Below, one piece after another: positions 25,062-59,309 of a stretch of 64,000 nucleotides of DNA (position 1 is its first letter; each line of letters starts with the position of its first letter). This stretch comes from a virus. Taxonomy: Duplodnaviria; Heunggongvirae; Uroviricota; Caudoviricetes. The stretch lies in IMG/VR virus record IMGVR_UViG_3300035042_000139. One strand, given 5' to 3'. A program made the translations under genes and the position numbers. Under the pieces are notes generated by a model, which did not search any database, was not told the origin of the DNA, and saw only the letters and a program-made list of their open reading frames with translations.

Positions 25062-25595
25062 TCAGTAAGCGTTGATTGTTATTTCATTATCAGAAAATCT
25101 ATCATCTACAACTCCAAAAACATAAGAGCCAGCTTCATTTATTTCAATACTTTTCTCTCCATAATTATTTGATACGTTTACAGGAAATGGAATATCATTT
25201 ACTTTTAGCTCTATTTTTTCAAAGTTGTCTACAGCCTCTAAAGTATTTTTGATAGTAACACTTATAGTTAAATTATTATTTAGACTTAAATCGAGCTCAT
25301 CCATTGAAGATTCAATTTCAATTACCGGCTTTTCTTTCACTTCTGTAAATCCATCAATTTTAACAATTCTTAATTTTTCTTGAGCATCAATTGTTATTAA
25401 CTCATCATAATAAACAACACTATCTAAAAATTCCTTCTGGTCTAATGGTACTCTAGCGGACATACATAGATTCTCAAAATCAGGAAGTGGAGCGCTACCA
25501 TAAGGCTTAGCCTGACATCTCAAAATTGCAAGATTCCTTTTGTCATATAAAATTCTACTTGGCATTAATCTGAACCTCCCTCTATTGCTAACCAC
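25062..25595 (-). CDS. Hypothetical protein (possible fiber accessory or assembly protein).
   Basis: 177-aa ORF overlapping the upstream fiber gene by 31 nt. Confidence 0.35.
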   Translation of the reverse strand: MVSNRGRFRLMPSRILYDKRNLAILRCQAKPYGSAPLPDFENLCMSARVPLDQKEFLDSVVYYDELITIDAQEKLRIVKIDGFTEVKEKPVIEIESSMDELDLSLNNNLTISVTIKNTLEAVDNFEKIELKVNDIPFPVNVSNNYGEKSIEINEAGSYVFGVVDDRFSDNEITINAY

Positions 25596-27388
25596 ATTAC
25601 CTCACCAGTTGCTATATTTAAGTCACTGGCTCTATACTCGCACTCAACAACGTTAATAGAAAGACTACCTGTTGAACATGATATATTGAATCTAAAATGA
25701 TATTCTCCCGCTGCCAAGTCCATTGCAATATCCCTGACACCAGTTGAAGGGTTTGTGTATCCTTTATGGTAAATCCAAGATGAACTTGTAGTTCTTTTAT
25801 AATAAAACCTTAGCACATTATTTGAAGATGATGATGTAACATTAAATCTTACTCTCAAATATGTGGAACCATTAACAGTACTTCCTGGCCAAACCCAGTC
25901 AGCACTTCCTGGAGTATAAGTATAACCATAACATTCGGAACCTGAGCGAATTGATGATGCACTAATATTTGTGTTTATTGTGTTTTTAGTAGTACCACCC
26001 AAAACTACTGACCTACCATAAACATAAAAACCACTGGCACTTGGAGCTGAGTGGTAACAGGAATATGTTTGGTTTCTGTTTGAGTAAGAACCAGTATAAC
26101 TTCTTAACTGTTTTATAGCTGTTGTAACTTTTGGGGCCTTATCCCAGCCCAAACTTATATAATCACCGTTTTGTGCTATGCCAGACGCTACTCTTTTAGA
26201 ATAATCATGTGGTATGCTTGAACCATTTTCGTAAAATAAAAGGGAGTCATCTGAAAGTATGGAGTAATCTCCATCAGAACCTGTGGTTCTTATACCTCTA
26301 CCATCAATTGTTACACTATTTACATCAACATCCCATTCTGTAGATGCATACCCGGCAGGTATTACTCCGTTATCAAACTCAACAGGATTCCATCCATTAC
26401 TTTGTATATTGTCTGTTATCTCACATCTTACACCACTTGTAGCACCAGTAAAGAAAACCTCAACATACATAGGGTCGTAAGTTCCATTAGTTAGCAACCT
26501 AACTCCTGAGATTGAAAGAATTGAATATCTAGAAAAAGATACCATTTGAAAATCAGCATTGCCTCTTTGGTTGTAACTACAACCTAATTTGAATTCTAAT
26601 GAGTTATGTTTTCCTCCATCTGTATCTCTTATTTTGAAGGTTGCGTGAGCTCTGTCTCCTGGATTTGAAGCTATCCTGACCCAACCAGGGCCCTCAATAT
26701 CTGCTTCAAATCTGTGATTAGTGCTAACCCATTTAGATTCATCATCAGCATATTTTTTGGCGTTAGTTTCTGCTGTAGTAGATTTACTTGTAGAACCACT
26801 TACTGTTTCTAAATCTTCAGCACTTGTGTCAACACCAGCAATATTTGAGCCTACATTTATTGAGCCACTAAATGATGCGTTACCATTACTATCTATTTTG
26901 AATGTGTCTTTAGAGCCATCATTTGCTGTTATACCAGTGTTATCTATTGTGATTGAGCCTGAAGAGTTTACTAGTTTAAAAGCTCCATTTACTACAGTTA
27001 TACCTGCTGAATCTATAGTAACATCTCCACCAGAAGAAGTTATTGGGTTGCCGTCAGCATCAGTAGTAGCTATTGTAGCTTTGCCATCATCAGAAACGTT
27101 GATACCTGTTGCTGACAGCCATTCTGAATCAAAGCCATCAGTTAGAGACTGAACCCATGCTATGTAGTTTGTGTCTTTATTTAATGTTATATTTCTAAAA
27201 ATATGCTCGTACTGAGTTGTACCTCTATTTAATATATCTGTTTTTTCTGAACTTGTTTTTTGTATAATTATTGCCTCTGTGTTAGGGTCAGAGCCTTGAG
27301 GGGCTATTGCTACATTAAACCCCTCAAGTAACATTTCGTCTCCTTCCCAGGTCCAAGACACATATATATCTTTAAGTATCTTCGCCAT
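25565..27388 (-). CDS. Tail fiber / receptor-binding protein, paralog family (N-terminal anchor domain).
   Basis: N-terminal 'IYVSWTWEGDEMLLEGFNVAIAPQG...YIAWVQSLTDG' is shared with 32083.., 36998.. and 39651... C-terminal part is beta-rich and Gly/Ser/Thr-rich. Confidence 0.6.
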   Translation of the reverse strand: MAKILKDIYVSWTWEGDEMLLEGFNVAIAPQGSDPNTEAIIIQKTSSEKTDILNRGTTQYEHIFRNITLNKDTNYIAWVQSLTDGFDSEWLSATGINVSDDGKATIATTDADGNPITSSGGDVTIDSAGITVVNGAFKLVNSSGSITIDNTGITANDGSKDTFKIDSNGNASFSGSINVGSNIAGVDTSAEDLETVSGSTSKSTTAETNAKKYADDESKWVSTNHRFEADIEGPGWVRIASNPGDRAHATFKIRDTDGGKHNSLEFKLGCSYNQRGNADFQMVSFSRYSILSISGVRLLTNGTYDPMYVEVFFTGATSGVRCEITDNIQSNGWNPVEFDNGVIPAGYASTEWDVDVNSVTIDGRGIRTTGSDGDYSILSDDSLLFYENGSSIPHDYSKRVASGIAQNGDYISLGWDKAPKVTTAIKQLRSYTGSYSNRNQTYSCYHSAPSASGFYVYGRSVVLGGTTKNTINTNISASSIRSGSECYGYTYTPGSADWVWPGSTVNGSTYLRVRFNVTSSSSNNVLRFYYKRTTSSSWIYHKGYTNPSTGVRDIAMDLAAGEYHFRFNISCSTGSLSINVVECEYRASDLNIATGEVMWLAIEGGSD

Positions 27389-30300
27389 TATTGCATTACC
27401 TCCATATCGACTGAATCCGGCATATCAATTTTTACACTTCTGTTAGGGTCATAAAACGGAGACCCTCCTATTCTGTCAATTTGTTTTTGGTCTATTATCT
27501 GTGGAAAAACTAAAAGCTCATCTATATCAATAGCTCCACTTTTAATAGTTATTTTGTCGTTTGTGCTCTCAAACCAGCTGACATCATACTTATTGTTTAT
27601 TTCGTTATCAACATAGACCTCTCCATCTGAGTTGATAAATATTGTTCTAAACTCACTATCGTCTATACCTCTTCTAAATACATGCATTGTCCATTCAGTA
27701 AAATCGCTGATATCAATTTCTAAGTCTGATAGACCTAGCCTTATGCCTTGCGAGAATTTACCGCTTACTAAGATAGGTTCGTCATACAATACCAAGATAT
27801 CCTGTAGTGAAGGTGCCGGACCTTCTGTTTTGTTTATGCCTGCTTCATATAATGTTTGTGATTTATAATTTGTTCTTTTACCTATTTCGTAGAGTGTAGG
27901 AGAATCGTATGACTTTGATAAAACATCTATTATCTGAGAACTTGGCGACTGGTAATTTTTGTTTATACCAGTTTCGTATTTTGTTTCAGATTTATAATCT
28001 GAGTTTATTCCCATTTCATAGTCGCTTAATCCCGTTAAAGTATGACTAGCATATATTCTTGGGGTAAATATAGAACTAATTTGTTGCTCTCCAGTTTCAT
28101 TTGTTGCTATATCATAACCATTAAAGCTTGCAGCTATATCTATCTCTCTAGGTACATTGCTAAAAATTGCTGTTTTACTCCCACCACCTGTTATATTATC
28201 CATATCAGTATTTGTTGTTATACCATCAGGAAGTGTGTTTTCATCGTAGTGCCAAATACCATCTACGTAAAACCCTATCTCTGTTCTGTCAACACCGGAT
28301 AAGTCTTGCTGGTCTTCTATGAACCACTCTATTGTGGCTGTATAGGTGTCATAGACCCCAGTTGGTGAATCAATTGTTATGTTGGTTGAGTTGATTACTG
28401 GTGCTGTTTTGTCTATCTTATATGGCCCTGAATAATCATAGGCTGTGTTATTGTAATTATCAGTTGCCTTGATGTGTAAATACCATTCACCTTCTTGTGA
28501 TTGAGAGGTAGCAAAATTAGTAGTTGTACCCATTACAATCCATCCATCAGTAGGTTGAACAGCTGAGTTTGTCCACTTATACCATGCCTCTGCTACACCA
28601 GAACCAGCCTGGTCATCAACATTAATTACCTCATCTACATTTGTATTTAACCAATCTCTTGAATTCAAACTATAACCAACAATTGGTTCTGTAATATCAT
28701 CAGTTATCATCTCAGCATAAGTATCTTCACTGAAGTTTCCTGCCTTATCAAATACTCTTACCTTATATCTATAATTAGTATATTCACTTAAACCATCAAC
28801 AGTATAGCTTGTATCAGTATTTGAAAGCTGTATAGAAGGTTCTGTGTTAGAATCTCCATCAATATCTATATCAGCCACATAATTTAAACTGCCGTCACTT
28901 TCTTCAGTATATAGTTCTACATAATCTACTCCTGATAAGCTATCGCTATTAGTCCACTCTAAACTGAATGAGTGAGAAGTATTATTGATTAAATTAACAT
29001 TAGGTACATCAGGTTGTGTCTTATCTATATCATAAGTCCCTTGTCTGTCTATCACTACTTGGTTGTCTGAGTTAAAAGCTTTAGTATATAAGTACCATTG
29101 ACCATCCTGTGATTGAGTCAAGGGGTTAGAGGTAAATGTTTCCCAAGTGTTAGGATTAGTAGTATCTAAGCTCCACTTATATTTTATTGGAGTTTCTATT
29201 TGTACCTCTAAACTCTCTAATACAGGGGTCAAAGTAGTGTCATTAGTATCAAGAGTTTGCCTTACATCAAGAGTAGTTGGATTAGCAGGTAGGTTAGGTA
29301 TAGCACCACCATTAGTTGCTGTCTGCCAGGTTGAGCCGTTGTCAATGGAGGTTTTGATAGTAGTTAATAAATTTTCATCTACAGAGTTTACTACAGATGT
29401 TTTAGTGATAGTAATATCATCAACCCATAATGCACCTGTGTTATTTACATAATTGAATATCCAAATTCCTACCTCTGTTATACCAGCAGGAATAGTTAAT
29501 CTTCCTTCATAAGTAGTCCAACTTTCTCCTACATTAACATAACTCATATTTGAAAAGTATCGATAATTTTGATTGTTATTAGCAGTAAGACCAACATACA
29601 TGCTTGAAGTTCCTGCATCACCTTTTGCTCTTATTCTACATTTATATTCTTCTCCTTCTTCAACATTAAATCTATAATTACTTTTTATTCTGTGATAAGC
29701 GCCATCACCTGGAAAATAAACAGACTTATTGCCGTCCTCTGATGTTGTGCTTAAAGATGGATTACCCAATTCTATTATCCATTCATCAGTTAAATTTATT
29801 ATATCAAAGTTAGCTTGATAAGGATAATATTTCCAACTAATACTACTACTTGCTACATCATTAACTGCTGATAAGTCTAGTTGAGGGGCTTGGCGTGTTC
29901 CATTGTCCATTCTTTTAGCAGGTAGTTGTTGATTATATATTTTCTGTATTTGACTATCGCTTATAGCTTTTTTCTCTATCATTAATTCATCATAAATAAA
30001 ACCTGTTTCATTAGAGACACCATAATACCCTAATGCTAAATATGGTATATCTGTATCGAAATCATTAGATAAAATCCTAGTTGATGATAAACTACCATTA
30101 TGATAAAAACTAAGCTCATTACCATCTTTTTTTATAGTAATCATATTCCATTGGAAAGAATTATTATCTATATCGCAAATGTCTTGGGTTTCCCATACTC
30201 CACTACTATCCTTCTGCCAAGTTCCTAGAGAAGGGTCAGTCTTCCACCTCATAATTGTTATTGAATTATTCACATAATAGTCATTAATTTGGAGTAGTCT

Positions 30301-31203
30301 AACTGTTCTATCCGGTAATAGTGAAGTGTCCCAATCCCATTTAGCCCATAAATTAATAGTGAAGTTATCTTTTGGTATTGTTATAGGATACTTTAATTGT
30401 CCACTGCTTCTACTACCATCTACAAATGATGTACAAAAAGCTCTTTCTTCAATTTGTGCTTTCTTGAAATATATAAAGTCTGTATCAGGGTTAAATGAAG
30501 TGCCATCAGAAACTGGTCGCATATTCAAATACCCATTTTGAATTGTGGTTGAGGTATATGCAAAACCCATAGCTTGTACTAATCTATCCCCATTAGGTAA
30601 ATCAGTTGTAAAATTCCTTTCTCCATAATCTAGTGGTTCATTTACATATTTTATAGCGTCAATTTTATGGTTAAACTTTTCTGGTACATTTGTGTAATAC
30701 TGTATAAAGGCACTATACCTAACTCCTCCTGTAAAACTTACAGAAGGCAACGCCATACAATATGGGTAAGTACCACTACTCCAAGTCCCACTTATTCCAT
30801 ATTTATAATAACCACTTTCTATTCCTATATAATTAAGTGAAATGTTACGGGTTCCTCTAATTGAAGTAGGGTCTATTAAATTTGTAGTGCTAGGCTCAAC
30901 AGCAATACTTGTTCCTCCATTTCTCCCTAAACCCTCTTTATAGGTAGAAATATCAGTGGTAGGAGATATATCACTAGACCTTCCTTCTAAATTTTTACTA
31001 TCTTCATACCCACTAAAATAGTCAAATTGTTTTAACTGCAAATTATCATTAACTACCTCTACATCAGTCAGAGTTCCTTCTGAAAAACTAGCATTATCAT
31101 TGTCAACATCTATTATCCCATTAAATCCATCAGGGTCTGTTATGTTTACATTCACATCTGTATTATCCCAGTCTCTACTTGTTATATCGTAATTTAAAGC
31201 CAA
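27388..31203 (-). CDS. Large tail fiber / receptor-binding protein with LamG-like, FN3 and CBM-like domains.
   Basis: FN3 ('PDVPNVNLINNTSHSFSLEWTNSD...YRYKVRVFDKAGN'), ConA/LamG-like ('FTINLWAKWDWD...FYHNGSL') and CBM-like ('YKCRIRAKGDAGTSSMYVGL...ALWVDDITI') domains. Shares internal segments with 36998..39634 and the family C-terminal motif. Confidence 0.6.
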   Translation of the reverse strand: MALNYDITSRDWDNTDVNVNITDPDGFNGIIDVDNDNASFSEGTLTDVEVVNDNLQLKQFDYFSGYEDSKNLEGRSSDISPTTDISTYKEGLGRNGGTSIAVEPSTTNLIDPTSIRGTRNISLNYIGIESGYYKYGISGTWSSGTYPYCMALPSVSFTGGVRYSAFIQYYTNVPEKFNHKIDAIKYVNEPLDYGERNFTTDLPNGDRLVQAMGFAYTSTTIQNGYLNMRPVSDGTSFNPDTDFIYFKKAQIEERAFCTSFVDGSRSSGQLKYPITIPKDNFTINLWAKWDWDTSLLPDRTVRLLQINDYYVNNSITIMRWKTDPSLGTWQKDSSGVWETQDICDIDNNSFQWNMITIKKDGNELSFYHNGSLSSTRILSNDFDTDIPYLALGYYGVSNETGFIYDELMIEKKAISDSQIQKIYNQQLPAKRMDNGTRQAPQLDLSAVNDVASSSISWKYYPYQANFDIINLTDEWIIELGNPSLSTTSEDGNKSVYFPGDGAYHRIKSNYRFNVEEGEEYKCRIRAKGDAGTSSMYVGLTANNNQNYRYFSNMSYVNVGESWTTYEGRLTIPAGITEVGIWIFNYVNNTGALWVDDITITKTSVVNSVDENLLTTIKTSIDNGSTWQTATNGGAIPNLPANPTTLDVRQTLDTNDTTLTPVLESLEVQIETPIKYKWSLDTTNPNTWETFTSNPLTQSQDGQWYLYTKAFNSDNQVVIDRQGTYDIDKTQPDVPNVNLINNTSHSFSLEWTNSDSLSGVDYVELYTEESDGSLNYVADIDIDGDSNTEPSIQLSNTDTSYTVDGLSEYTNYRYKVRVFDKAGNFSEDTYAEMITDDITEPIVGYSLNSRDWLNTNVDEVINVDDQAGSGVAEAWYKWTNSAVQPTDGWIVMGTTTNFATSQSQEGEWYLHIKATDNYNNTAYDYSGPYKIDKTAPVINSTNITIDSPTGVYDTYTATIEWFIEDQQDLSGVDRTEIGFYVDGIWHYDENTLPDGITTNTDMDNITGGGSKTAIFSNVPREIDIAASFNGYDIATNETGEQQISSIFTPRIYASHTLTGLSDYEMGINSDYKSETKYETGINKNYQSPSSQIIDVLSKSYDSPTLYEIGKRTNYKSQTLYEAGINKTEGPAPSLQDILVLYDEPILVSGKFSQGIRLGLSDLEIDISDFTEWTMHVFRRGIDDSEFRTIFINSDGEVYVDNEINNKYDVSWFESTNDKITIKSGAIDIDELLVFPQIIDQKQIDRIGGSPFYDPNRSVKIDMPDSVDMEVMQ

Positions 31204-31222
31204 GTTAAAACCTCCTTTCTTT

Positions 31223-31513
31223 TTATAGTTCTATCATTGTTATATTGTCTGGTTTGTTTATTTTTTCTTTTTCGTCAGGGTCGTAAAATGTTGAGTTGTA
31301 ATACCTATCAAGGTCTTCATCTGTTATCATAAATGGTATCGCTATTAGTTCATCGATATCAATCGCCTCATTTTTAATCGTTACTGTTTTATCTGTTTCG
31401 TTAAATTCAAACCAACTTATATTAGTTTCTATTAACTCCTTATCAACATATATTCTTCCTTGACGCTCCTCGGGGCAAGCCCTCGAGGTTTGCGAGCAGA
31501 CTTTCATAATCAC
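31223..31513 (-). pseudogene. Remnant of a tail-fiber C-terminal domain (fragment).
   Basis: 'IKNEAIDIDELIAIPFMITDEDLDRYYNSTFYDPDEKEKINKPDNITMIEL' matches the last about 60 aa of 27388..31203. Its N-terminus is encoded by an anomalous GC-rich patch (31463-31500). Confidence 0.5.
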
Positions 31514-31671
31514 TAATAATATTTATGCTTTTTGTTTCTCCAATCTCGTATTTGCTGCTAGAATAAACAGAGAGTGAGTCATTAGTGTAATACCAGTCTC
31601 AATACTGTAGTCTAATGATAAAACTAAAACCTCCCTTCTGTTGTTAAGTATTATAAATATTACTAAACTAA

Positions 31672-32079
31672 TTACTTAACATATTCGTCATAATTTTCTA
31701 TGTGATGTTCTATATTACTTATTGTAAAGGCGGTTGTTATATTTGGTGCTGTCATCTTCCTCCAGATAGGTACAGGTGGGTCAAAATCATTATTTGGAAC
31801 ATTTAAAACCTGATTGTATGTACCTGGACTTCCATTACTGTCTAAAGCATATTCTATGTCAATCTCTCCTGCGTTTGATGTATGGTCAAAATCATTTACT
31901 GTGCTGACAACTATATTTTCGTATGTTAAATTAGGGTCATCTGAACCTATATAAATTTGTGTTTCTGATATAATAGTGCTGCCTACAACATCAGCAAGTC
32001 TTTCATGGTCTACATCTGCTTCTGTTATCTCTTGAGTACCTGCTGCATCATGATAAAAATGTAATGCCATTATATTCAC
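31672..32079 (-). CDS. Hypothetical protein.
   Basis: 135-aa acidic ORF. Confidence 0.35.
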   Translation of the reverse strand: MNIMALHFYHDAAGTQEITEADVDHERLADVVGSTIISETQIYIGSDDPNLTYENIVVSTVNDFDHTSNAGEIDIEYALDSNGSPGTYNQVLNVPNNDFDPPVPIWRKMTAPNITTAFTISNIEHHIENYDEYVK

Positions 32080-32082
32080 TCC

Positions 32083-33417
32083 TTAAACTGGTTTTATTAT
32101 TGTAATCATTTCTCCCTGGGTGGATGTGAAGTGCTTGTCAAAATGCCACAACTTACCACCTTCGGGTTTTACATTTACCTTTTTTTTCGTTGATTCGTTT
32201 ATTGTTTCGAGTATCGATTTACCTTCTGCTCCTACTGTAACACCATCAGATATGTACCCATCTTCTGCATAAATGGTTCCGTTTACAAGTAATCCTAAGT
32301 TTGGTTCGTAGTATAATCTTCCTCCGAAATCTATAATGCCGCTATCTAGGTCAACCTGAGCTCCTTTTGTTTGTGGTTCATAATTTTCTGACTGAATCTG
32401 CCCTGTCCTTACTACTCCACCAGAAATAGTTGTGTAATTTGTTGTATCAGAAGTCCAATTTTCAACAGCACCAACAGCATTTTCTGAATAAGATTTAGCG
32501 TTTTCTTCAGCAGAATCAGCTTTGCTTTGTGCCCCTGATTGTGTTTCTAAGTCATTGGTTGAAGTTGCTGTACCTCCAATTACTATCTCGCCTTCAAAAT
32601 GGGCGTTTCCGTCGGGGTCTATACTAAAGCTACCGCTTGTATGTCTAATACCGTTTTCGTCTAAAAGGAATGTTCCTCCACCAGCTGAACCATTAACATT
32701 GTCGTGATTGATGGTTGCATCACCAACATCAACATCTGTCCAACTTGCAGGACTTACTATATTGCCAATCTCTAATCCGTTTTCTGTTCTTCTTGCTGCT
32801 GCTATACCAAATCTATAAAATGTATTAGGAGCAAGTCCTTCTAATAAGTAGTACGCACTATTGCTTTCGTTTACACTAAAGCTAACATTGCTGTCTTCTG
32901 TTGTAGGCACTCCAAGACCTGAAGTATCACCCTTTTTCCAGAAAAGAATAAGCATATCTGCTTTTCTTGTCCCCTGACTATATGGTGCCCACTCGACTCT
33001 AATATCTAGAGAGCCGTTGCTGTTTTCATTAACAACTATATTGGTCGGTGTTGGCTCATTAGTTGGAGACCCTTTTGTTCTGTAATTAACAGTTTCATCT
33101 AAAAGAGCGTCGTGCTGGTCTTTAGTTGTTATAGTAGCTGTGCCGTCATCATTGGCTATAAACCCGCTGACGCTTATCCACTGACTATCTTTATTTTCAT
33201 AGATAGCCTGAACCCATGCCGTATATTCAATGCCGTCTTTTAGTGTAATCTGCCTGAATGTATGCTCAAATTTTTCCTTACCGGTTTGAGCTAATACAAC
33301 AATCTCATCAGTAGGCTCAACTCCAACAGGTGTTATTGCTACATTAAATCCAAGAACAGCATATATGTCTCCTGACCAATCCCATGTTATCTTTAAGTTT
33401 TTTATAACATATGCCAT
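32083..33417 (-). CDS. Tail fiber / receptor-binding protein paralog (N-terminal anchor domain). Appears C-terminally truncated.
   Basis: N-terminal 'LKITWDWSGDIYAVLGFNVAITPVG...YTAWVQAIYENKDSQW'. Ends 'WHFDKHFTSTQGEMITIIKPV*', i.e. stops about 10 aa into the 'HFDKHLTSTKG' LamG-like module found in paralogs. Confidence 0.55.
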   Translation of the reverse strand: MAYVIKNLKITWDWSGDIYAVLGFNVAITPVGVEPTDEIVVLAQTGKEKFEHTFRQITLKDGIEYTAWVQAIYENKDSQWISVSGFIANDDGTATITTKDQHDALLDETVNYRTKGSPTNEPTPTNIVVNENSNGSLDIRVEWAPYSQGTRKADMLILFWKKGDTSGLGVPTTEDSNVSFSVNESNSAYYLLEGLAPNTFYRFGIAAARRTENGLEIGNIVSPASWTDVDVGDATINHDNVNGSAGGGTFLLDENGIRHTSGSFSIDPDGNAHFEGEIVIGGTATSTNDLETQSGAQSKADSAEENAKSYSENAVGAVENWTSDTTNYTTISGGVVRTGQIQSENYEPQTKGAQVDLDSGIIDFGGRLYYEPNLGLLVNGTIYAEDGYISDGVTVGAEGKSILETINESTKKKVNVKPEGGKLWHFDKHFTSTQGEMITIIKPV

Positions 33418-33460
33418 TATTTCACCTCTCTATTTTTGAAGTTTGCCCCCCTTTAAAAAA

Positions 33461-33751
33461 TTAAATTTCAAAATTTTCTATATTAACCATTCTATCTCCT
33501 ACATAAACATCGGCAGAGGGTTTTTTAAATAATAATTTATGGTACCTCACACCCCAGTCCTCAAACTGCTTTTCTGTGACAAAACGCCAGTCAATTTCAG
33601 TTTCAGTACCTCTAGCTGTGAAGTACCATATAGTATTTCCTTCATCATATAATCTGTTAAACATTTTTATTTTTTCTTTTTTTGGCTTAGCATCATGATA
33701 GTTTTTCTCTTGTGTACATATAGTTCCATCTATATCTACAACATATTTCAT
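33461..33751 (-). CDS. Small HAD-superfamily phosphatase-like protein.
   Basis: 'KYVVDIDGTICT' HAD motif I. 96 aa. Similar to 11902..12297. Confidence 0.45.
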   Translation of the reverse strand: MKYVVDIDGTICTQEKNYHDAKPKKEKIKMFNRLYDEGNTIWYFTARGTETEIDWRFVTEKQFEDWGVRYHKLLFKKPSADVYVGDRMVNIENFEI

Positions 33752-33884
33752 TTATTTATAGCAAGGAAACCTCATCCTAATCTTGTCTCTGATTAGGGTG
33801 GGGAGGAATTGCGTAATTTAATATCCTTACTATTTTTTCACCATCCTTTTTTAAATATTTTGTAACATTTAAGTGTTTAAATAC

Positions 33885-33913
33885 TTGACTTTTACAACAA
33901 AATGTGGTATAAT
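33885..33913 (+). promoter_or_regulatory. Consensus sigma70 promoter (TTGACT-17-TATAAT, extended -10 TGg).
   Basis: TTGACT 33885-33890, 17-nt spacer, TATAAT 33908-33913. Confidence 0.6.
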
Positions 33914-33933
33914 AGTAGTATGAGGTGATAAAA

Positions 33934-34074
33934 ATGGAACGAACACAAGTCTCTTTACCTAAATATCTTAGAGATAAACTAGATGAAGAAGGAAACAAAA
34001 AAGGCATAGGCATTTCAGAAATGGTTCGCTATATTTTATTTCAATACTATGAAGAAAGTGATAACAATGAGTAA
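33934..34074 (+). CDS. Small ribbon-helix-helix-like protein (46 aa) inside the IS element.
   Basis: RBS GAGGTGA 33922-33928. MERTQVSLPKYLRDKLDEEGNKKGIGISEMVRYILFQYYEE... has a beta-strand plus two helices of CopG/RHH type. Overlaps the tnpB start. Confidence 0.35.
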   Translation: MERTQVSLPKYLRDKLDEEGNKKGIGISEMVRYILFQYYEESDNNE

Positions 34075-35203
34075 ATCACATATCACACTACACCACATTA
34101 AATTATTTGAACCTACAAATATTAAACGTAATGAACTAAAAAAGCTTTCTCGTAACTGGAACAAAGCTATTCGTTCAGCCCTCAAAATAATTAAACACTG
34201 GGGGCTTACTGCTTACACTAAATCACATAAGCATGTATATAGAGTTGTTAAGAATAATTACAACCTCCCTTCACAGGTAGCTATTGAAGCTAATCGTAAA
34301 GCTATGGAATCTTATAAGTCTTGTCATAAAAAGTTTAGAGATAACGTTAAGTTTAACTATCAAGTACCTGTTGATTTAGTTAAGAATAAAAGTTTTAAAC
34401 TTATAAGAAAAGATAACGGTACTAATATTATAAAGATAAGCATTGAGCCTTATAACAATATCTACGTACCTATCTCTTTAAGCAACTACCACTTAAATTA
34501 TATTAATAATGATAGGTACGAGATTAAAACAGCTGAGCTATATAAACAAGATGGTGAATGGTATCTTAATTTTATACTAAGATACGAAGTGAAAGGAAAA
34601 GAAACAGACACTCATCTTGGTGTTGACCTTGGTATTATTAATCTAGCTACGTTTAGTGTAGTAGACAGCAGTGAAAATATTTTGCATACTGAACACCTAT
34701 CAGGTAAAGAGTTAAGGTTTAAACGTATGAGATATAAAAGTAAACGTAAGCGTAAAGCTTTTAAGTCTGATAGTAAGAATACTTCACTGATTAAAGAAAA
34801 CAGAATTACTAAAGAAACTAACTGGCTTATAACTAATAGAATTATTGAGATAGCTAAAGAATATAATTCTACTATTGTATTTGAAAACCTTAAGAATATT
34901 AGAAAGAATATTACTAACGATAACAATCTAAACAACTATGAGAAAAATAGTTGGGCTTACTATCAATTAAAACAGTTTGTAAAACATAAAGCTAATCTTA
35001 ATAACTTACCTGTTGAAGAAGTTAATCCTTACAAAACATCTAAGATATGCCACGTATGTGGACAAGAAGGCATAAGAGAAACACAAAACTTGTTTGAATG
35101 TACTAATGGTCACACTTTTAATGCTGATACTAATGCCAGTATAAATATAGCTAAACTTGCTATGGGTATTGAGATAGAAAATCCTTTTGTCGATGTAGCA
35201 TAG
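34049..35203 (+). CDS. tnpB: TnpB (IS605 OrfB / IS1341-type RNA-guided RuvC-like nuclease).
   Basis: RuvC-I 'HLGVDLGIINLA', RuvC-II 'TIVFENLKNI', zinc finger 'CHVCGQ...CTNGH', RuvC-III 'NADTNASINIAK'. Likely start at ATG 34067 (MSKSHITL). Confidence 0.8.
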   Translation: MKKVITMSKSHITLHHIKLFEPTNIKRNELKKLSRNWNKAIRSALKIIKHWGLTAYTKSHKHVYRVVKNNYNLPSQVAIEANRKAMESYKSCHKKFRDNVKFNYQVPVDLVKNKSFKLIRKDNGTNIIKISIEPYNNIYVPISLSNYHLNYINNDRYEIKTAELYKQDGEWYLNFILRYEVKGKETDTHLGVDLGIINLATFSVVDSSENILHTEHLSGKELRFKRMRYKSKRKRKAFKSDSKNTSLIKENRITKETNWLITNRIIEIAKEYNSTIVFENLKNIRKNITNDNNLNNYEKNSWAYYQLKQFVKHKANLNNLPVEEVNPYKTSKICHVCGQEGIRETQNLFECTNGHTFNADTNASINIAKLAMGIEIENPFVDVA

Positions 35204-35424
35204 CTGTTTAATACAGCTTACAGAGTAATCTGTAACCCACTGTGTTTTAACATGGTGGATAGGGTGAAAAAGATTCACGAGTCAACCATCCTGTAACTTT
35301 CTTAATCCTGAATCACCCACTTGTGGGTTTAAGAAGGTGCGAAAACTTGTTAATAGACTATACTGAGTATGGTTTATTACTTAACAAGCTCCCTTCTAAT
35401 CTTGTTTTTGATTAGGTGGGAGAA
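35204..35424 (+). ncRNA. Putative omega-RNA (right-end RNA) scaffold of the TnpB element.
   Basis: Non-coding stretch of about 200 nt from the tnpB stop through the right-end hairpin (35396-35415), as in characterised TnpB/omega-RNA loci. The guide would derive from flanking DNA from about 35421 onward. Confidence 0.4.
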
Positions 35425-36092
35425 GTTGACTTATTTTCCCACTTCCATTTAGCAAATTCATAATCCTCTTTGGTGTCTATATCTATTACTTCTTTGTTTG
35501 GTACTTCTATTAAAGAATGGTTGTCTTTTAGCATCTGCCCGTCTTTGAAAAAATTATCTTTATTAAAAATATGAAAGCAGTGAGCAGCTTCGTAATAATC
35601 AGGTATTTCTTTTGTTGTCAGCCTCTCATAATTTATATCTGTTAAGCATTGATTTTGATTATTAAATAACCAGTTTTTATAAACTTTTACGCTTGTTGCA
35701 TAATTGCCCTCACAGTAATCTTCATCTAAACTATCGAATGTCTCTAATGACTTTAAGATTGTTTCTTTTTTTAAAAAAGCAAGGCACGGATTTAAAAACA
35801 TTAAATGTGTATCTTCTACTTCTTTTAAGTCTTTAAATATATACTCAAGCGGGCCATCAACTAAAGCCGTAATTTTATCTCTTAAAATAACTGTTAGATT
35901 ATCATATTTTTGAGCAATCTCTACAAGCTCTTTGTCGTAGCATAGTGCATATTTATTATACTTATCTGGCAGACTGTTTAGCTTTTTACAGGCTATATCC
36001 CAAAGGTTTGTATCTCCTAAAGGAAGTACTAATTTGTTTGGAAGCCTTTCGCTTTGTAATCTACCAGGAATAAAAACTCCGATTTTTTTCAT
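35412..36092 (-). CDS. Acylneuraminate/3-deoxy-manno-octulosonate cytidylyltransferase family (NeuA/KdsB-like, CTP_transf_3).
   Basis: 'KIGVFIPGRLQSERLPNKLVLPLGD' matches 'IIPAR.GS.R.P.K.L..' N-terminal motif of CMP-ulosonic acid synthetases. 226 aa. Its stop codon lies inside the IS right-end hairpin. Confidence 0.55.
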   Translation of the reverse strand: MKKIGVFIPGRLQSERLPNKLVLPLGDTNLWDIACKKLNSLPDKYNKYALCYDKELVEIAQKYDNLTVILRDKITALVDGPLEYIFKDLKEVEDTHLMFLNPCLAFLKKETILKSLETFDSLDEDYCEGNYATSVKVYKNWLFNNQNQCLTDINYERLTTKEIPDYYEAAHCFHIFNKDNFFKDGQMLKDNHSLIEVPNKEVIDIDTKEDYEFAKWKWENKSTSPT

Positions 36093-36111
36093 TTATTAAC
36101 TCCTTTTAATC

Positions 36112-36915
36112 TCAATATTTTATACCGGGATTCTCCCTGGTATACCTTCCCTCTTCTTTGATGCAGTATTTACACTGCTCGGGAAAGTCTAAGTTTTGAA
36201 GTCTTAACTGCAGGTCTTTTAGCTTTTTAGAATCCAGTATTGACCTGATACTTTCGTTTTTTATGTTACCAAGTACAAATTCCTGGTGGATATTATTATC
36301 GCTTCTGAAGTTGCAGCAGGGCATCACATTGCAGTTGTAGTCTATCCCAAGAAAATGAAAAGGCTCATAACATTTCTTTTTTCTTATTTTTTTATCTGCT
36401 TTTTCTAAAGAGCCCGCCCTGTCTCCAAAGCTTTCCAGTCTGGCCCAGTCGCTAACATACACTACTTCCATGTCGTGACCAAAACCGTATATCTTATTAT
36501 CTATTATTTCTGTTATCTCAAAATTTAAATCTTCCATTCTTTGAATACAGTAGCCTAAACCTTTGTTGTCGTAATCCATTATTGAAAGCTCATCTATCTC
36601 AACTCTATCTAAAATTGAGTTTGTAAGATAATCTCCATTGGTGTTTGTTACAAGTCTTGCTTCAGGTAATAACAACCTTGCTTTTTTAGTATACTGAGCA
36701 AAAATTTCTTTCAAAGCAAAAGGTTCATTATACCTTGAGTAACTTATTGTTCCTTTATAATCGATGGACTTGAGTTCGTTTAAAATATTTGTATAATTAG
36801 TCTTAGGCAGTATCTTTTTTATCTTTCGATTTATATATTTATTAGGACACCAACTGCATGTTCTGTTGCAATAGCTGTGTATTTCTATTTCTACCATTCT
36901 TAGATTAGTGTACAT
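36112..36915 (-). CDS. Radical SAM / SPASM-like domain protein (paralog 3).
   Basis: 'VEIEIHSYCNRTCSWCPN', 'TNTNGDY', 'LSIMDYDNKG', C-terminal 'CYEP...MPCCNFR...LGNI...C.YC'. Confidence 0.65.
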   Translation of the reverse strand: MYTNLRMVEIEIHSYCNRTCSWCPNKYINRKIKKILPKTNYTNILNELKSIDYKGTISYSRYNEPFALKEIFAQYTKKARLLLPEARLVTNTNGDYLTNSILDRVEIDELSIMDYDNKGLGYCIQRMEDLNFEITEIIDNKIYGFGHDMEVVYVSDWARLESFGDRAGSLEKADKKIRKKKCYEPFHFLGIDYNCNVMPCCNFRSDNNIHQEFVLGNIKNESIRSILDSKKLKDLQLRLQNLDFPEQCKYCIKEEGRYTRENPGIKY

Positions 36916-36950
36916 TTTGGCCCCCTTTTTATTCTTTCCTTCTATATATA

Positions 36951-36979
36951 ATTATACCATATTCTGGACCATTTTTCAA
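36951..36979 (-). promoter_or_regulatory. Sigma70-type promoter on the - strand (TTGAAA-17-TATAAT, extended -10).
   Basis: Reverse complement of 36951-36979 is TTGAAAAATGGTCCAGAATATGGTATAAT. Lies between the fiber gene 36998.. and radical-SAM paralog 3. Confidence 0.5.
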
Positions 36980-36997
36980 GTTGTTTATTAAACTAAA

Positions 36998-39634
36998 CTA
37001 AACCTCTGTTAATACTACATTTGTGGGTGTATTTGTGTTTGTTTTAGGGTGCAAATCAACGAATGGTGTTCCGAGTTCATACCAGTTATTGATTTCTTCT
37101 TCTGTTACGTCTCCATCTTTTATTAGTACTTCGTCATAGATGTTGTTTGGTTTAAACTGTAACTTGCCGGGTTCGGTTATATCTATCACGGCATTCGGTA
37201 CTGCATTTATTTGATTACCGTTTAGATAAGCTGTGCCGTCAGGCTTGATGGTGTACATTTTGTACTCATCATCACTATCAGTAAAGATATATGCCTTAAC
37301 TTCTGATAGAGTAGGGGTTATGGTTGTTGCACCAGTGCTGAGTTTGAGCCTTACATCAAGTGTCGTTGGACTTGTTGGCAGGTTAGGAACTGAGCCCCCA
37401 TTTTCACACAATTGCCATGAAGAACCATTATCTACGCTTGTTTCTACTTTTAATGAGCTTAAGTCAGTTATGTGCCAGTCAAAAAAATAATAATAATAAT
37501 CAGCAGCATTTGTTCCAGTCATTGTTGCTATATTATATTTACTTTCATATGGAAATGTTGCTGCACCCGGAATCCTTCTTAATGGCGTGGCGCTGGTATT
37601 TGTTACCCTTCCTATTCTGTAGCTTCCAGGTTCTAACACCCAGCCTATATCTATCCTCTGCTCTCCTGAAGTTGATATATTGATAGTTTTGTCTTTTATA
37701 TAGCCTCCGCTACCATCCTGTAATGTTATAACAACATCACCTGTAAAATTAGCATCAATAAGCACACTATCAAGTCTCATTCTTCTATGAACATCAAAAT
37801 AGATTAATCCATTATTACCGTGATAACTTCCCCCCATGCTATCTCCGAAGTTCTCTTCTTCGATGTAATTTCCTTCCCACTCTATTAAACTATCAGTAAC
37901 ATTATTAATATCAGATAGATTTAGTTGAGGTGATTGTCGGGTGCCAGATTTTTTGTATTGTTCTATATAGATATTATCCAACCCAGTTCCATTAACATCA
38001 GTATATCTTGCAAAAGAATGAAACTTGCCTTCATCAACTACTCCTTCTGGGGCTGAAACTTCCCAATCCCAATTCTCAGGCTCAGAGTCTCCTTCAATCC
38101 ATATTTTAACTTTAATATCAGAACTATCTTTAAACATTTTTATATTAAACCATTGACCAGCCATATTATAATAGTTGTATTTTGTGTCAGAAAATAAAGA
38201 AGTGCTTGCCCCACCTATTAAAGATAGTAGTTCTATTTCATAATCTCCGCTTTTGTAAGTCCTCATGTAAAAGGTTAATCTATCATCATCACTATTCCAT
38301 ATAGGAGATACATAGTATTGGTCCTGTGATGAACCATGACCATTGTTCATAAATTTAAAATTTATAGTTTTTTTACCAGACTCAATAACGTTGTTAATAG
38401 TATATGCAGAAATATTGTCTGCTGTATGTCTTAAATATCCATTGTCAATATCAAAATTGCCTGTCCAATTATTTGAGTTTAAAAAATCATCTTCAAAAGT
38501 AGGTTTTAATAACTCAACCCCATCACCAACAACTTCTACATCAGTTAATATTCCTTTACTAAAATCCTCGTTTGTATTCTCTACTAAACTCGTAACACCT
38601 TTTCTGTAGAAATTAATTGTTTTATTATCAGTATTGATAGGATAGTTAAGCTTACCTTTGTCTCTGGTTGATTCTGTGAATGAGGTTGAGAATATACTTT
38701 TTTCTACTTGAACTTTTTTAAAGTATACAAAATCAGTATTAGGATTAAATGTAGTTCCATTTTCTTTTGGTCTTATAGACAAATATCCTGATTGGGTTGT
38801 ATCTTTAGGGTAAATAAACCCCTCTCTTTTAACAAAAAAGATATCATTATGTAGCTTCTCAACTGAAAAATTTCCGGTTGTAACCAAAGACATGTTCACA
38901 TAATTAACAGACCTTATTTCTGAGTGAAATTTGTGCTGTGCATTAGTTTTAAAATAAAACGAAGTAGAATAAGCAGTATTAGCTTTTAAACTAACACCTT
39001 TAAGGCGCATGCAGTATGGATATGTTCCACTGTTCCAGGTGCCACTTAAACTATACTTTTTCCAACCATTTTCATCACTAATATAAGTTAAAGAAATTCC
39101 ACTCGTTCCTGATATTCCATTTGATAAATTCTCAGTGCTTTCCTCTATGGCCACAGCTCCATCATGTTTTCCATCTTCTCTTATAGTTACTTCATAGCCA
39201 GCTTCCGGCTCCAACCCCTTAGTAGAAGTTAAATGCTTATCAAAATGAATCAGCTCGTCATTGTCTTTTATGTAGCGTGAATCGAAATATTCTTTTGCAT
39301 TCTGTTCTGTTTCATCTGCTATTGTGTCTACATCAGTAGAAGATACTATGGTTGGTGTTCCGTCATCAGGTACTGTTATCTTACCCGTAGTCTGCCAGGC
39401 ACTATCTCCACCTTCATAAATAGCCTGCACCCAGCCCTGATATTCTCCATCAGCATTAATAGTTATATTTTCAAAAGTATAAGACCTTGATGAGGCTTCA
39501 ACTCTTGCCTTTGCAATTGACTCACTGTTTGGGTTGCCACCATAGGGGGTTATGGCAACATTAAACCCCCTTAAGGCAAAGGTATCTCCCTCCCAGCTCC
39601 ATGTTATATTTCCGTCTCTGTTTTGTTTGTTCAA
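36998..39634 (-). CDS. Tail fiber / receptor-binding protein paralog with LamG-like domains.
   Basis: N-terminal anchor 'NITWSWEGDTFALRGFNVAITPYG...YQGWVQAIYEGGDSAW', 'HFDKHLTSTKG' module, segments shared with 27388..31203, and the family C-terminal motif 'YDEVLIKDGDVTEEEINNWYELGTPFVDL'. Confidence 0.6.
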   Translation of the reverse strand: MNKQNRDGNITWSWEGDTFALRGFNVAITPYGGNPNSESIAKARVEASSRSYTFENITINADGEYQGWVQAIYEGGDSAWQTTGKITVPDDGTPTIVSSTDVDTIADETEQNAKEYFDSRYIKDNDELIHFDKHLTSTKGLEPEAGYEVTIREDGKHDGAVAIEESTENLSNGISGTSGISLTYISDENGWKKYSLSGTWNSGTYPYCMRLKGVSLKANTAYSTSFYFKTNAQHKFHSEIRSVNYVNMSLVTTGNFSVEKLHNDIFFVKREGFIYPKDTTQSGYLSIRPKENGTTFNPNTDFVYFKKVQVEKSIFSTSFTESTRDKGKLNYPINTDNKTINFYRKGVTSLVENTNEDFSKGILTDVEVVGDGVELLKPTFEDDFLNSNNWTGNFDIDNGYLRHTADNISAYTINNVIESGKKTINFKFMNNGHGSSQDQYYVSPIWNSDDDRLTFYMRTYKSGDYEIELLSLIGGASTSLFSDTKYNYYNMAGQWFNIKMFKDSSDIKVKIWIEGDSEPENWDWEVSAPEGVVDEGKFHSFARYTDVNGTGLDNIYIEQYKKSGTRQSPQLNLSDINNVTDSLIEWEGNYIEEENFGDSMGGSYHGNNGLIYFDVHRRMRLDSVLIDANFTGDVVITLQDGSGGYIKDKTINISTSGEQRIDIGWVLEPGSYRIGRVTNTSATPLRRIPGAATFPYESKYNIATMTGTNAADYYYYFFDWHITDLSSLKVETSVDNGSSWQLCENGGSVPNLPTSPTTLDVRLKLSTGATTITPTLSEVKAYIFTDSDDEYKMYTIKPDGTAYLNGNQINAVPNAVIDITEPGKLQFKPNNIYDEVLIKDGDVTEEEINNWYELGTPFVDLHPKTNTNTPTNVVLTEV

Positions 39635-39650
39635 AGTCTACACCTCTCTT

Positions 39651-41882
39651 TTAATTCCAACTCATTGTAATTGAGGTTGGCTCCGGAACATCTATTGTAA
39701 GTTCAGGGTCAAAAAATGGTTTCTGCATATCATACCAGTTTTTTATCTCTGCTGCTGAATTTAATTCTGTTGAGACCATCAGTTCATCATATACTCCTGT
39801 GTTTAATGTTATATTTGGTGCACTAACTGTCATGAAGCTTGTGGTAGCTCCGTCATTTCTCTCTCCATTCACATACTTCTCTCCGTTAGACTTTATTACA
39901 TAATGGTCAAAAGAACCGCCTAATGTGCTTGTATAGTAGACTGATATAGTATAATCTGTTAAACTGCCGAAGTTATACGACAGGCTACTGACTACTTCTG
40001 CTGCTCCACCGAATTTGCCTCCATCTTTGTGCAAATTAACATCATAACCTGAGTTAGGACCTACTCCATCAGTAGATGTTATATTTTTATTAAAGTGGAA
40101 TAAATAGGTTGTGTTTGGATTAACTATATGAGCGTGTGTTAAATCTTTTGTATACTGTTCTGCATTAGTAGCAAGTTCCCAATGAGAAGCTGTGAAGTTT
40201 CCTGTTGAACCATCAGCTGTTGTACAGATTTTCATATCAACATTATCCGGGCCAAGCCACCACATATCACCTACATCATAAGGAGAAACTGGCTCATTTG
40301 TGAATATTGTCTTCTTTTTATCAGCGGTCCCTTGAGCTTCTCCTGCAGCTTCCATAGCGTCTATTGCTTTCTGGTCTGTTATCTCATTCCAGCCTGCCCC
40401 ATCCCATCTTTTAAGCTTCTGAGAACCTGATGTATTGTCATACCAGAGGTCTCCTTCGTGAGAGGCATCAGTGCCAGCCCAGCTTGTAGAAGGGTCTGTT
40501 GAGCCAAACCAGGTATCTATCTTACCGTCAATCTGGCCTGTTAAATCGTCAACTGTATCTGCAAATGTCCCGTCTATGAAAGTATTTACTGTTGTGTCAT
40601 CTGTATATTTTACTGCCTTTTCCCAGTCGTTTGAGCTGTAAGAACCTGTGTCTGATTTAGGAGTAATACAGCGGTATAAATCTCCGCTTTCTCCTTCTGT
40701 CCATAAATCTCCGACATCATAAGGTGTCGTTGGAGTTGTGACAAAAACTCTTCTTTTCTGGTCAGCTAAATCTTCAGCACCTCTTGCTGTTGTCAAAGCT
40801 TCAGTCAAGGCGTTATCTGTTATTTCTGTCCAGGAATATGAGCCTGTTGAGCCTGTAAAACGGTAGGCTGTACCTGTTACATTATCATAGTAGATATCTC
40901 CCAGGTGAGAATTTCTGATATAGTAATCTGTATCATCAGTTGATGCATTATCTTCTGTTTCCCAGTCTGTATATGGCTGGCTTGTTAAGCTAGGTACCCC
41001 ATCCATAAACCAGGTTGTTATATTGCCATCTAGCTGGTTTTGGAGTTCTGTCATATTTTGAGTCATGCTGTCTACAAAATTCTGGTATTCTGTTCCTGTT
41101 GCATAGTCAGCAGCTTTCTGCCAGTCATTTACTGAATAACTTTCGCCTTCAAGCTTTGCAGTTTTACAGACATACATGTCTCCTGCTTCACCCTGTGCCC
41201 ACATATCACCTACATCATAGGGGGTTGTAGGAGTTGAGGTAAAGATTCTTCTCTTTTCGTCTGCTGTATCCTGAGCCTTAGAAGCGTTATCGTAAGCGTC
41301 AATTGCTTTCTGGTCCTGTATTAAAATCCAGCTTCCTGCAGAACCGTCCCAGTTATATCTTTTAAGCTGGTTTGAGGTTCCGTTGTACCACATATCTCCG
41401 TGGTGTTTTTCCTTTTCAGAAGCTGTTGTCCAGTTTGTCTCAGGGTCAGTTGAGGTAAACCATGTTTCTATCTTGCCGTCAATTTGTGTCTGCAGTGCTT
41501 CTTTATCTGTTGTGTACTGGCCGTCAATAAAGGTCTGAACTTTATCTGCGGCTACAGTGTCAACTTCATCAAGTGAAGCTATTGACGGTGTTCCATCATC
41601 TTCTATAACCAGAGTACTTGTAGAAAGCCAATCACTATCCTCGTTTTCATAAACTGCCTGAACCCATGCTACATATGTATTGGCTGTATCTACTGTTATA
41701 TCTCTAAATATATATTCATAAAGTCCGTTTTTGTTTTTTGTGGTTCCTGCAGATGCATAAACTGTTGCATCCTGTCTTGGGTCTCCCCCTGAAGGGGTTA
41801 AAACTACATTAAATCTTTCTAATGCAAACTCATCACCAGACCAGTCCCATGTTATCTTTGCGTTTCTTATTTGTTTATTCAT
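39651..41882 (-). CDS. Tail fiber / receptor-binding protein paralog with internally repeated modules.
   Basis: N-terminal anchor 'AKITWDWSGDEFALERFNVVLTPSG...YVAWVQAVYENEDSDW'. Three internal repeats of a 'TPYDVGDMW..GE.GD.Y.C' module. C-terminal LamG-like 'FHFNKNITSTDG...YDELMVSTELNSAAEIKNWYDMQKPFFD'. Confidence 0.6.
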   Translation of the reverse strand: MNKQIRNAKITWDWSGDEFALERFNVVLTPSGGDPRQDATVYASAGTTKNKNGLYEYIFRDITVDTANTYVAWVQAVYENEDSDWLSTSTLVIEDDGTPSIASLDEVDTVAADKVQTFIDGQYTTDKEALQTQIDGKIETWFTSTDPETNWTTASEKEKHHGDMWYNGTSNQLKRYNWDGSAGSWILIQDQKAIDAYDNASKAQDTADEKRRIFTSTPTTPYDVGDMWAQGEAGDMYVCKTAKLEGESYSVNDWQKAADYATGTEYQNFVDSMTQNMTELQNQLDGNITTWFMDGVPSLTSQPYTDWETEDNASTDDTDYYIRNSHLGDIYYDNVTGTAYRFTGSTGSYSWTEITDNALTEALTTARGAEDLADQKRRVFVTTPTTPYDVGDLWTEGESGDLYRCITPKSDTGSYSSNDWEKAVKYTDDTTVNTFIDGTFADTVDDLTGQIDGKIDTWFGSTDPSTSWAGTDASHEGDLWYDNTSGSQKLKRWDGAGWNEITDQKAIDAMEAAGEAQGTADKKKTIFTNEPVSPYDVGDMWWLGPDNVDMKICTTADGSTGNFTASHWELATNAEQYTKDLTHAHIVNPNTTYLFHFNKNITSTDGVGPNSGYDVNLHKDGGKFGGAAEVVSSLSYNFGSLTDYTISVYYTSTLGGSFDHYVIKSNGEKYVNGERNDGATTSFMTVSAPNITLNTGVYDELMVSTELNSAAEIKNWYDMQKPFFDPELTIDVPEPTSITMSWN

Positions 41883-50447: not shown

Positions 50448-50460
50448 TATTTATACCTCC

Positions 50461-54821: not shown

Positions 54822-54834
54822 AAAAGCCTCCTTT

Positions 54835-57435: not shown

Positions 57436-57452
57436 TGCTTCACCACCATTCT

Positions 57453-59288: not shown

Positions 59289-59309
59289 AGAACCCTCCTT
59301 CCTTTCTTT

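Follow-up and report, generated by a model that had tools for sequence, protein, structure and literature searches.

Host range is set by the fibre proteins of a phage, and phage engineering needs sites at which fibre modules can be cut and joined. In the long tail fibre of T4, the different proteins gp34, gp35, gp36 and gp37 are encoded in order and joined head-to-tail with the receptor-binding end last; phages of the CBA120/G7C type and the Klebsiella jumbo phages phiKp24 and RaK2 carry branched systems of multiple receptor-binding proteins (RBPs), held by T4 gp10-like or other anchors on an adaptor; and in T5, the receptor-binding protein pb5 docks on the C-terminal end of the gpJ-like central fibre pb4. 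Outside the phages, chaperone-usher pili form serial polymers in which an edge-strand-less immunoglobulin-like (Ig-like) fold is completed by a peptide of the next subunit. Cassettes with multiple fibres, anchors at the N-terminus and fibres assembled in series are all known already. In this article, I discuss a tail-fibre cassette in a 64,000-nucleotide stretch of DNA from a tailed virus (Caudoviricetes; IMG/VR record IMGVR_UViG_3300035042_000139), hereafter the window, whose genes are named by their lower coordinate (Table 1). The evidence somewhat favours fibre segments joined by a conserved two-part connector: a plug at the extreme C-terminus of one fibre, made of the strand and helix that close a Laminin_G_3 (LamG) domain, a PF.D motif and a tail of ~20 amino acids (aa), would fit a socket at the N-terminus of another, a ~100-aa fibronectin type III (FN3)-like domain (the N-domain) with strand A apparently missing and a DDG.ATI segment after it. 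The plug of the upstream-encoded, proximal protein would dock in the socket of the downstream-encoded, distal one, giving a serial topology.

As in the T4 long tail fibre, an ordered, segmented and serial fibre is proposed here, from gene order and from the parity of tails and sockets; however, the window cassette has no sequence relationship to T4, its joints would be a repeated and interchangeable pair of LamG-tail and FN3-like domain, and the number of segments varies with the strain. The many-RBP cassette with conserved N-terminal anchors and variable, mosaic distal domains recalls the CBA120/G7C-type phages, phiKp24 and RaK2, but when all cassette proteins were scanned with Pfam and PHROG, no T4 gp10-like (XD) domains came up, and gene order suggests that a fibre docks on the C-terminal end of the one before it. 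The T5 pb4-pb5 pair differs in having a single distal protein, with neither a shared connector family nor a chain, while pili have monomeric subunits that lack the C-terminal strand G, whereas here strand A would, speculatively, come from a C-terminal tail. Anchoring by dodecameric rings of N-terminal Ig-like domains has been described for side fibres (PMC13455828), and lambda Stf and the T5 collar proteins are like the window fibres in their N-terminal Ig/FN3-like anchor (PMC13455828); those domains ring the distal tail protein, whereas the window domain is coupled to a peptide at the C-terminus of a fibre or tip protein. The lineage of 0305phi8-36 is known for added complexity of its fibres, for FN3 domains and for fibre genes remodelled by recombination (PMC2147016), and it has distant homologues (25-28% identity) of the virion-protein genes upstream of the window cassette, yet a tblastn search with four divergent N-domain variants found none in 50,697 deposited phage records that include 0305phi8-36 and its relatives. 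No described equivalent of the connector pair was found in the literature searched, and its wide spread in uncultured phages and the polymorphism in chain length were likewise not found in the libraries and papers searched.

The original prediction held that four genes of the cassette share an N-terminal block, and they do: in an all-against-all BLASTP comparison, the first 100-115 aa of g25565, g32083, g36998 and g39651 are related at 37-45% identity (E 3e-19 to 6e-26), their alignment has 25 invariant columns and is not one of low complexity, and a hidden Markov model (HMM) of the N-domain run against the six-frame open reading frames (ORFs) of the 64-kb window finds exactly four copies, although the start of g25565 (WVQSLTDG) is only a loose fit to the consensus quoted. 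Searching 1.84 billion representative proteins with a profile of the N-domain returned 146 matches, 102 of them with E<1e-10; in 114 of the 146 the domain starts at residues 1-33 of proteins of 95-2605 aa whose downstream sequence is unrelated, several proteins of the family end in Peptidase_S74 (a fibre chaperone domain), and the weak, multi-stretch matches are ordinary FN3 repeats. The domain is not limited to the window phage or to jumbo phages, and the idea of paralogous tail-fibre or RBP-like proteins with a conserved N-terminal docking-type domain and mosaic distal parts is supported.

Modelled alone with AlphaFold2 (AF2; 51 sequences), the N-domain is a six-stranded sandwich with a predicted local distance difference test (pLDDT) score of 74.9, the conserved DDG.ATI segment directly after it being disordered, and its top 50 Foldseek matches in the PDB are all FN3, with template-modelling (TM) scores of up to 0.72 on the target. 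The Pfam fn3 profile (PF00041; threshold 25 bits) gives 15.4-19.4 bits for three of the N-domains, below the gathering threshold, and no match for that of g39651; in three of the four the alignment begins at profile position 15-16, which is protein residue 8-9, so that the domain looks like an FN3 without strand A. Seven strands (A, B, C, C', E, F, G) make an FN3; the model has six, and strand A is the one unaccounted for in the profile alignment, and together these two features agree with the edge-strand-less acceptor fold that donor-strand complementation calls for. The N-domain hence appears, from modelling, to be a fibronectin-type-III-like fold from which strand A seems to be absent. No Pfam or PHROG family covers it, a profile search of solved structures gave weak FN3 matches only (E 0.016), and Foldseek against viral models gave generic FN3 matches only. 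In locus L012 (4274-6421), the N-domain of a link protein, meaning one with both N-domain and tail, is split by an insertion of ~200 aa, with the HMM matching residues 1-33 and 242-313.

At the other end of the proteins, the C-terminal element that had been predicted for five of them was recovered by an HMM of the last 85 aa, which finds five copies (g27388, g31223, g36998, g39651 and g41904), each reaching the final residue; BLASTP relates the element of g27388 to those of g31223 (45% over 76 aa, E 3e-15) and g39651 (E 1.5e-7), and that of g39651 to those of g36998 (E 5.5e-7) and g41904 (E 6e-5). The 40-aa motif needs to be divided, however. Most of it, (I/Y)DE(V/L)(L/M)(I/V)...(E/Q)I..W, is the generic last strand and helix of Laminin_G_3, because matches to that family end there: the C-terminal module of g41904 scores 28.7 bits against Laminin_G_3 (PF13385; cut-off 27.6; profile 9-144), and an internal copy in g27388 scores 30.3 bits and ends at IYDELMIEKKAISDSQIQ (profile 151/151). 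In the C-terminal modules of g39651, g36998, g27388 and g31223, Pfam gives no direct Laminin_G_3 match even at E<=1, and these are putative Laminin_G_3 modules only through their BLAST and HMM homology to the g41904 copy. What is specific is PF.D and the ~20 residues up to the protein end (PF.D...P.P[ST].V.[LM]T.. and stop), with a tail consensus of P.P(S/T).(V/I).(L/M)T.. over 20 proteins from many lineages, which I take to resemble the consensus of FN3 strand A. The tail is always protein-terminal, internal LamG copies lack it, and in L011, L005 and L022 it occurs without a LamG domain. A word-indexed protein search, too insensitive a method here, gave no matches with the g39651 C-module and one with the 20-row tail alignment. 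The earlier suggestion of a folding or assembly module was, in its assembly part, close to what this evidence suggests.

It is the order of the genes that couples the two elements. Three window genes (g41904, g39651 and g27388) end in a tail and each has an N-domain gene next, 21 nucleotides (nt) away for the first, 16 nt away for the second and overlapping by 1 nt for the third, and Shine-Dalgarno sites are present; among the loci surveyed, a strict regular expression finds the tail in 18 of 27 genes directly upstream of N-domain genes and in 7 of 190 other ORFs (six of these seven being genuine tails), and with degenerate tails counted 24 of the 27 upstream genes are tail-ended. The same tail-then-N-domain order is found in the unrelated loci L007, L005, L009 and L011 and in L004 and L006 (together 52-68% GC), which are unrelated too. 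In all 11 distant members (contigs fetched by protein identity; GC 28-61%), the upstream gene ends in a LamG-type motif and/or a tail; where Pfam was recorded, these genes match Prophage_tail, Phage-tail_3, FNIII-A_GpJ or Laminin_G_3 and encode siphophage tail-tip proteins, and in single-fibre phages the tail is on a Tal or gpJ-like tip protein. Since many donors are thus not fibre paralogs, tandem duplication was ruled out as the cause of the adjacency. Tails and sockets also match in number (4 intact to 4 in the window, 2 to 2 in a sister strain, REL, and 2 to 2 in L011), and the spacers, from -4 to 87 nt, vary in frame and contain Shine-Dalgarno sites, so that the proteins are translated separately. 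For the common adaptor of the original prediction there is no evidence; gene order best indicates the C-terminal tail of the preceding protein as the partner, hence serial rather than parallel docking.

Comparing related phages, as had been proposed, shows that sister strains differ in the fibres present. REL (IMGVR_UViG_3300033747_000022; a 203.6-kb assembly with a 59-bp terminal overlap) is in parts 92-96% identical to the window in DNA and lacks g39651 and g36998; if links are counted between the g41904-type gene and the radical-SAM block, four strains of this one lineage have 0 (REL), 2 (the window), 3 (L008) and at least 3 (L012). In the strains compared, the tail VPIADVVNINWL is always followed by MNKQIRNAKITWDW and the tail VPEPTSITMSWN always by MNKQNRDGNITWSW, and the final tail before a g32083-type gene is always ..P(T/S)NV.(L/V/I)TEV, irrespective of the protein that carries it. 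The REL homologue of g41904 is g41904-like up to IDEVLISNK in a three-way alignment and then has the g36998-type ending ...SPTNVVVTEV, from which it follows that a crossover inside the C-terminal element gained or lost two links. In L009, a g32083-like gene directly follows a g41904-like gene. Swapping is also seen within genes: four g36998 alleles (P0016, P0018, L008_951 and L012_941) keep both ends and exchange the centre, the g27388 alleles of REL and L012 (2184 and 2100 aa) retain ~30 aa at the start together with the C-terminal part, and g25565 matches its REL and L012 homologues at 97.5-98% identity over the first 204 aa and at 43% in the distal part.

The short g32083 was considered as a truncated pseudogene and this was rejected, the same ending being found in other lineages: homologues in REL, L012, L009 and L007 also stop just past a LWHFDKHFTSTQG-type motif. 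In L004 and L006, a Tal-like protein and the first fibre share this ending, and the next gene starts with the segment that in g36998 follows the HFDK-type motif and ends in a tail, with a complete Laminin_G_3 in between in L006 (36.1 bits) or a weak CBM_4_9 match in L004; its product has the look of an adaptor that would take up one strand and present a plug.

For the window, the docking order would run from a gpJ-like base, g41904, to g39651, g36998 and then g32083, which would be the acceptor of the g36998-type tail, and separately from g27388 to g25565; the latter is tail-less (C-terminus ...GEVMWLAIEGGSD) and presumably forms the distal end, the one that binds the receptor. Each link would bring its own putative carbohydrate-binding modules (LamG or CBM-like) and so place several specificities in series, and with one socket and one plug per link, recombination in the C-terminal element could add or remove links and leave the chain intact. 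Building on the established homology, folds, gene-order coupling and strain polymorphism with its crossover, one may speculate that donor-strand complementation is at work, with the tail as the absent strand A of the FN3. When the g39651 tail was joined to the g36998 N-domain in an AF2 chimera, pLDDT of the FN3 core rose from 77-88 to 91-97, with 76-78 for the tail itself. I would extend the speculation, as a tentative idea that could well be wrong, to a single FN3 split across two genes, with the tail as its strand A, that is reassembled between trimers and serves as a universal standard by which uncultured sipho- and myo-type phages concatenate or swap fibre modules, perhaps with a second split joint after the HFDK..STKG strand, the result being one very long, multi-specific fibre of strain-variable length.

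Several observations weigh against the plug and socket as described. The tail of the chimera has no beta-strand by DSSP, a weak test since its alignment has only four window-derived rows; Foldseek alignments that include the tail have a root-mean-square deviation of ~15 A, which means that it is not at the canonical position of strand A; and prepending the tail adds only ~1 bit to Pfam fn3 scores. Fibres with an A-strand-like extension of their own were predicted to lack an upstream tail and have one anyway, which contradicts the simple prediction from complementation. Moreover, three N-domain genes have no adjacent upstream tail (that of L003 and, in both L004 and L006, the gene of the first fibre), g36998 and g32083 are not adjacent in the window, with three genes and an insertion sequence (IS) element between them, and many of the surveyed loci are strains of one lineage, leaving only about 15 independent lineages.

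The same observations need to be weighed against other explanations. With parallel attachment, the four N-domains would sit on one baseplate adaptor or collar ring and present alternative RBPs side by side, and the LamG domain and tail would serve receptor binding or folding. Four trimeric paralogs would make 12 domains, ring anchoring by Ig-like domains is described for the lambda side fibres and the T5 collar (PMC13455828), the N-domains are conserved and the distal parts variable, and the AF2 chimera did not show the tail docked as a strand; I nevertheless think this arrangement unlikely, since it leaves unexplained both the parity of tails and sockets and the order of tail upstream of N-domain in about 15 lineages, including those where the tail is on non-paralogous Tal or gpJ-like proteins, and since paralogous N-domains are 37-45% identical within a phage and >=95% identical between strains, which fits distinct partners better than a shared site.

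Descent rather than interaction could also have placed the two elements next to each other, if an ancestral LamG-FN3 fibre gene had been split between strands A and B and the adjacency were a relic with no present function. The conserved gene order would suit this, as would the collinearity of tail plus next N-terminus with an intact FN3 (NTPTNVVLTEV and MAYVIKNLKITWDW compared with the internal PTPTNIVVNENSNGSLDIRVEW of g32083); but a functionless 20-aa tail would not hold its consensus over 28-68% GC and about 15 lineages, a fold short of an edge strand usually requires a partner, and tails are also found on LamG-less proteins, all of which make a relic quite improbable. I give hardly any credence to translational fusion, in which readthrough or frameshifting would yield giant polyproteins and tail and N-domain would be one ordinary FN3: the 21-nt spacer between g41904 and g39651 is in frame, but other junctions (16 nt, a 1-nt overlap, 7 to 87 nt) differ in frame and every one has a Shine-Dalgarno sequence and a start codon.

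If fibre segments are indeed joined by the two-part connector, its C-terminal LamG tail and N-terminal FN3-like domain would be conserved and recognisable in sequence, and annotators could predict fibre-on-fibre docking from gene order. Gains and losses of entire fibre segments among strains would be explained by a single crossover, there would be a natural splice point for swapping receptor-binding modules, and names could be given to two elements that are unannotated in domain libraries and were not found in the deposited phage genomes searched.

Table 1. Coordinates of the cassette genes and of the features within them (positions in the window, in nt; protein positions in aa where stated).
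Feature	Position	Strand	Description
g41904	41904..46364	minus	1486 aa; gpJ/central-fibre-like; no N-domain; first donor of the proposed chain; Pfam: three CarboxypepD_reg, Laminin_G_3 (aa 630-783), Phage_Tail_Tip (aa 842-933)
g41904 C-terminal Laminin_G_3 module, start	42540-42575		FHFDKHLTSTKG
g41904 tail	41907-41972		PFND...VPIADVVNINWL, stop; tail HMM to last residue
g39651	39651..41882	minus	743 aa; link 1
g39651 N-domain	41568-41882		
g39651 compact LamG-like module, start	40065-40100		from FHFNKNITSTDG
g39651 tail	39654-39719		PFFD...VPEPTSITMSWN, stop
g36998	36998..39634	minus	878 aa; link 2
g36998 N-domain	39335-39634		fn3 match: aa 9-81 on profile positions 15-78
g36998 motif	39215-39250		IHFDKHLTSTKG
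g36998 blocks in common with g27388	38600-39172 and 37181-37447		
g36998 C-terminal element	37001-37141		
g36998 tail	37001-37066		PFVD...NTPTNVVLTEV, stop
g32083	32083..33417	minus	444 aa; Pfam: fn3 (34.2 bits), DUF7359
g32083 N-domain	33118-33417		
g32083 internal fn3	32788-33051		intact
g32083 end	32113-32148		just past LWHFDKHFTSTQG
g31672	31672..32079	minus	135 aa; always after g32083-type gene
g31223	31223..31513	minus	3' relic of lost g27388-like gene: LamG end and tail ...KPDNITMIEL, stop
g27388	27388..31203	minus	1271 aa; donor without N-domain; stop overlaps g25565 start
g27388 internal Laminin_G_3	29944-30378		
g27388 fn3	28726-29004		
g27388 block in common with g36998	30340-30927		
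g27388 C-terminal element	27391-27531		
g27388 tail	27391-27459		PFYD...MPDSVDMEVMQ, stop
g25565	25565..27388	minus	607 aa; terminal acceptor
g25565 N-domain	27059-27388		
Segments sharing one REL stretch	37055..37084 and 41961-41990		both align to one 30-nt REL stretch (overlapping BLASTN segments) and so mark the crossover, in the C-terminal element, between the 2-link and 0-link strains

All the cassette genes lie on the minus strand at confirmed coordinates. In the order of transcription, g46378, g41904, g39651 and g36998 are followed by a radical-SAM/SPASM gene, a cytidylyltransferase gene and a small ORF, a stretch split by an opposite-strand TnpB element, and then by g32083, g31672, the 31223 fragment, g27388, g25565, g25062, more enzymes and an endolysin. 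Residues ~120-570 of g39651 form a shaft of three to four long repeats (..KRR(I/V)F..TP.TPYDVGD(M/L)W..) that match very large PHROG 'tail protein' families (phrog_21973, E 2e-89). The internal blocks that had been noted as common to g27388 and g36998 were confirmed by BLASTP, residues 93-288 of the former matching 155-345 of the latter (46% over 197 aa, E 5e-44) and 616-719 matching 730-818 (39% over 104 aa, E 2e-15).

The 31223 fragment does share the C-terminal element, as predicted, and is to be corrected to a 5'-truncated relic of a lost gene, the dead 5' stub of which lies at ~31621 (LSLDYSIETG, with the TTG start mutated to TTA). In REL, a remnant of a TnpB C-terminus (..CPECGEVHDRDINASKNI..; L002 about 11920-12134 and L001 1-90, equivalent to ~31491-31501 of the window) falls precisely on the 5' edge of the 31223-type relic, which suggests that a second g27388-like gene was lost to an IS element. 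The window has its own TnpB element at 33758-35430 (ORF 34049-35203 on the plus strand; Cas12f1-like_TNB, OrfB_IS605), between the cytidylyltransferase gene and g33461; it is in neither REL nor L008, and an Rfam scan nearby found no RNAs.

Two small genes accompany the fibres, g31672, with a counterpart in L007 at 46% identity and others in L009, L012 and REL, and g25062 (25062-25595), always after a g25565-type gene. Both have relatives at 41-46% identity in L007, REL and L009 and no family match (for g31672, none in Pfam or PHROG), and both are candidates for fibre accessory or assembly proteins. Enzyme and small genes are scattered amid the fibres (36112-36915, 35412-36092, 33461-33751, 23324-24196 and 24199-25044), among them two radical-SAM/SPASM paralogs that are 37% identical, a CTP_transf_3 cytidylyltransferase and small ORFs; in the second block of REL there are three paralogs of the radical-SAM type and two of g24199. 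The radical-SAM and cytidylyltransferase enzymes may modify sugars or the fibres.

A nucleotide search with the cassette found no match in deposited phages. Among species-representative genomes, the sole match was L007 (CAZGMM010000077.1), a 12-kb contig in the bin of an uncultured Halanaerobiales metagenome-assembled genome (MAG); its GC content is 33%, as in the window, with synteny between the two from the g32083-type gene through the endolysin, and it gives a weak hint at the host group. The cassette is preceded by a block of large virion-protein genes (48084-63938), where five neighbouring genes match PHROG 'virion structural protein' families and the product of 52899-54821 is 25-28% identical to ORF172-type proteins of five Bacillus jumbo phages and Moorella phage MTATph1, over 64-90% of its own length; judged from such homologues of lineage-specific virion structural proteins, the window phage is probably a 0305phi8-36-like jumbo myophage. 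In the same block, the 787-aa virion-protein homologue encoded at 48084-50447 has a ZU5 match at residues 386-459 (24.8 bits; cut-off 21), an unusual domain in a phage structural protein.

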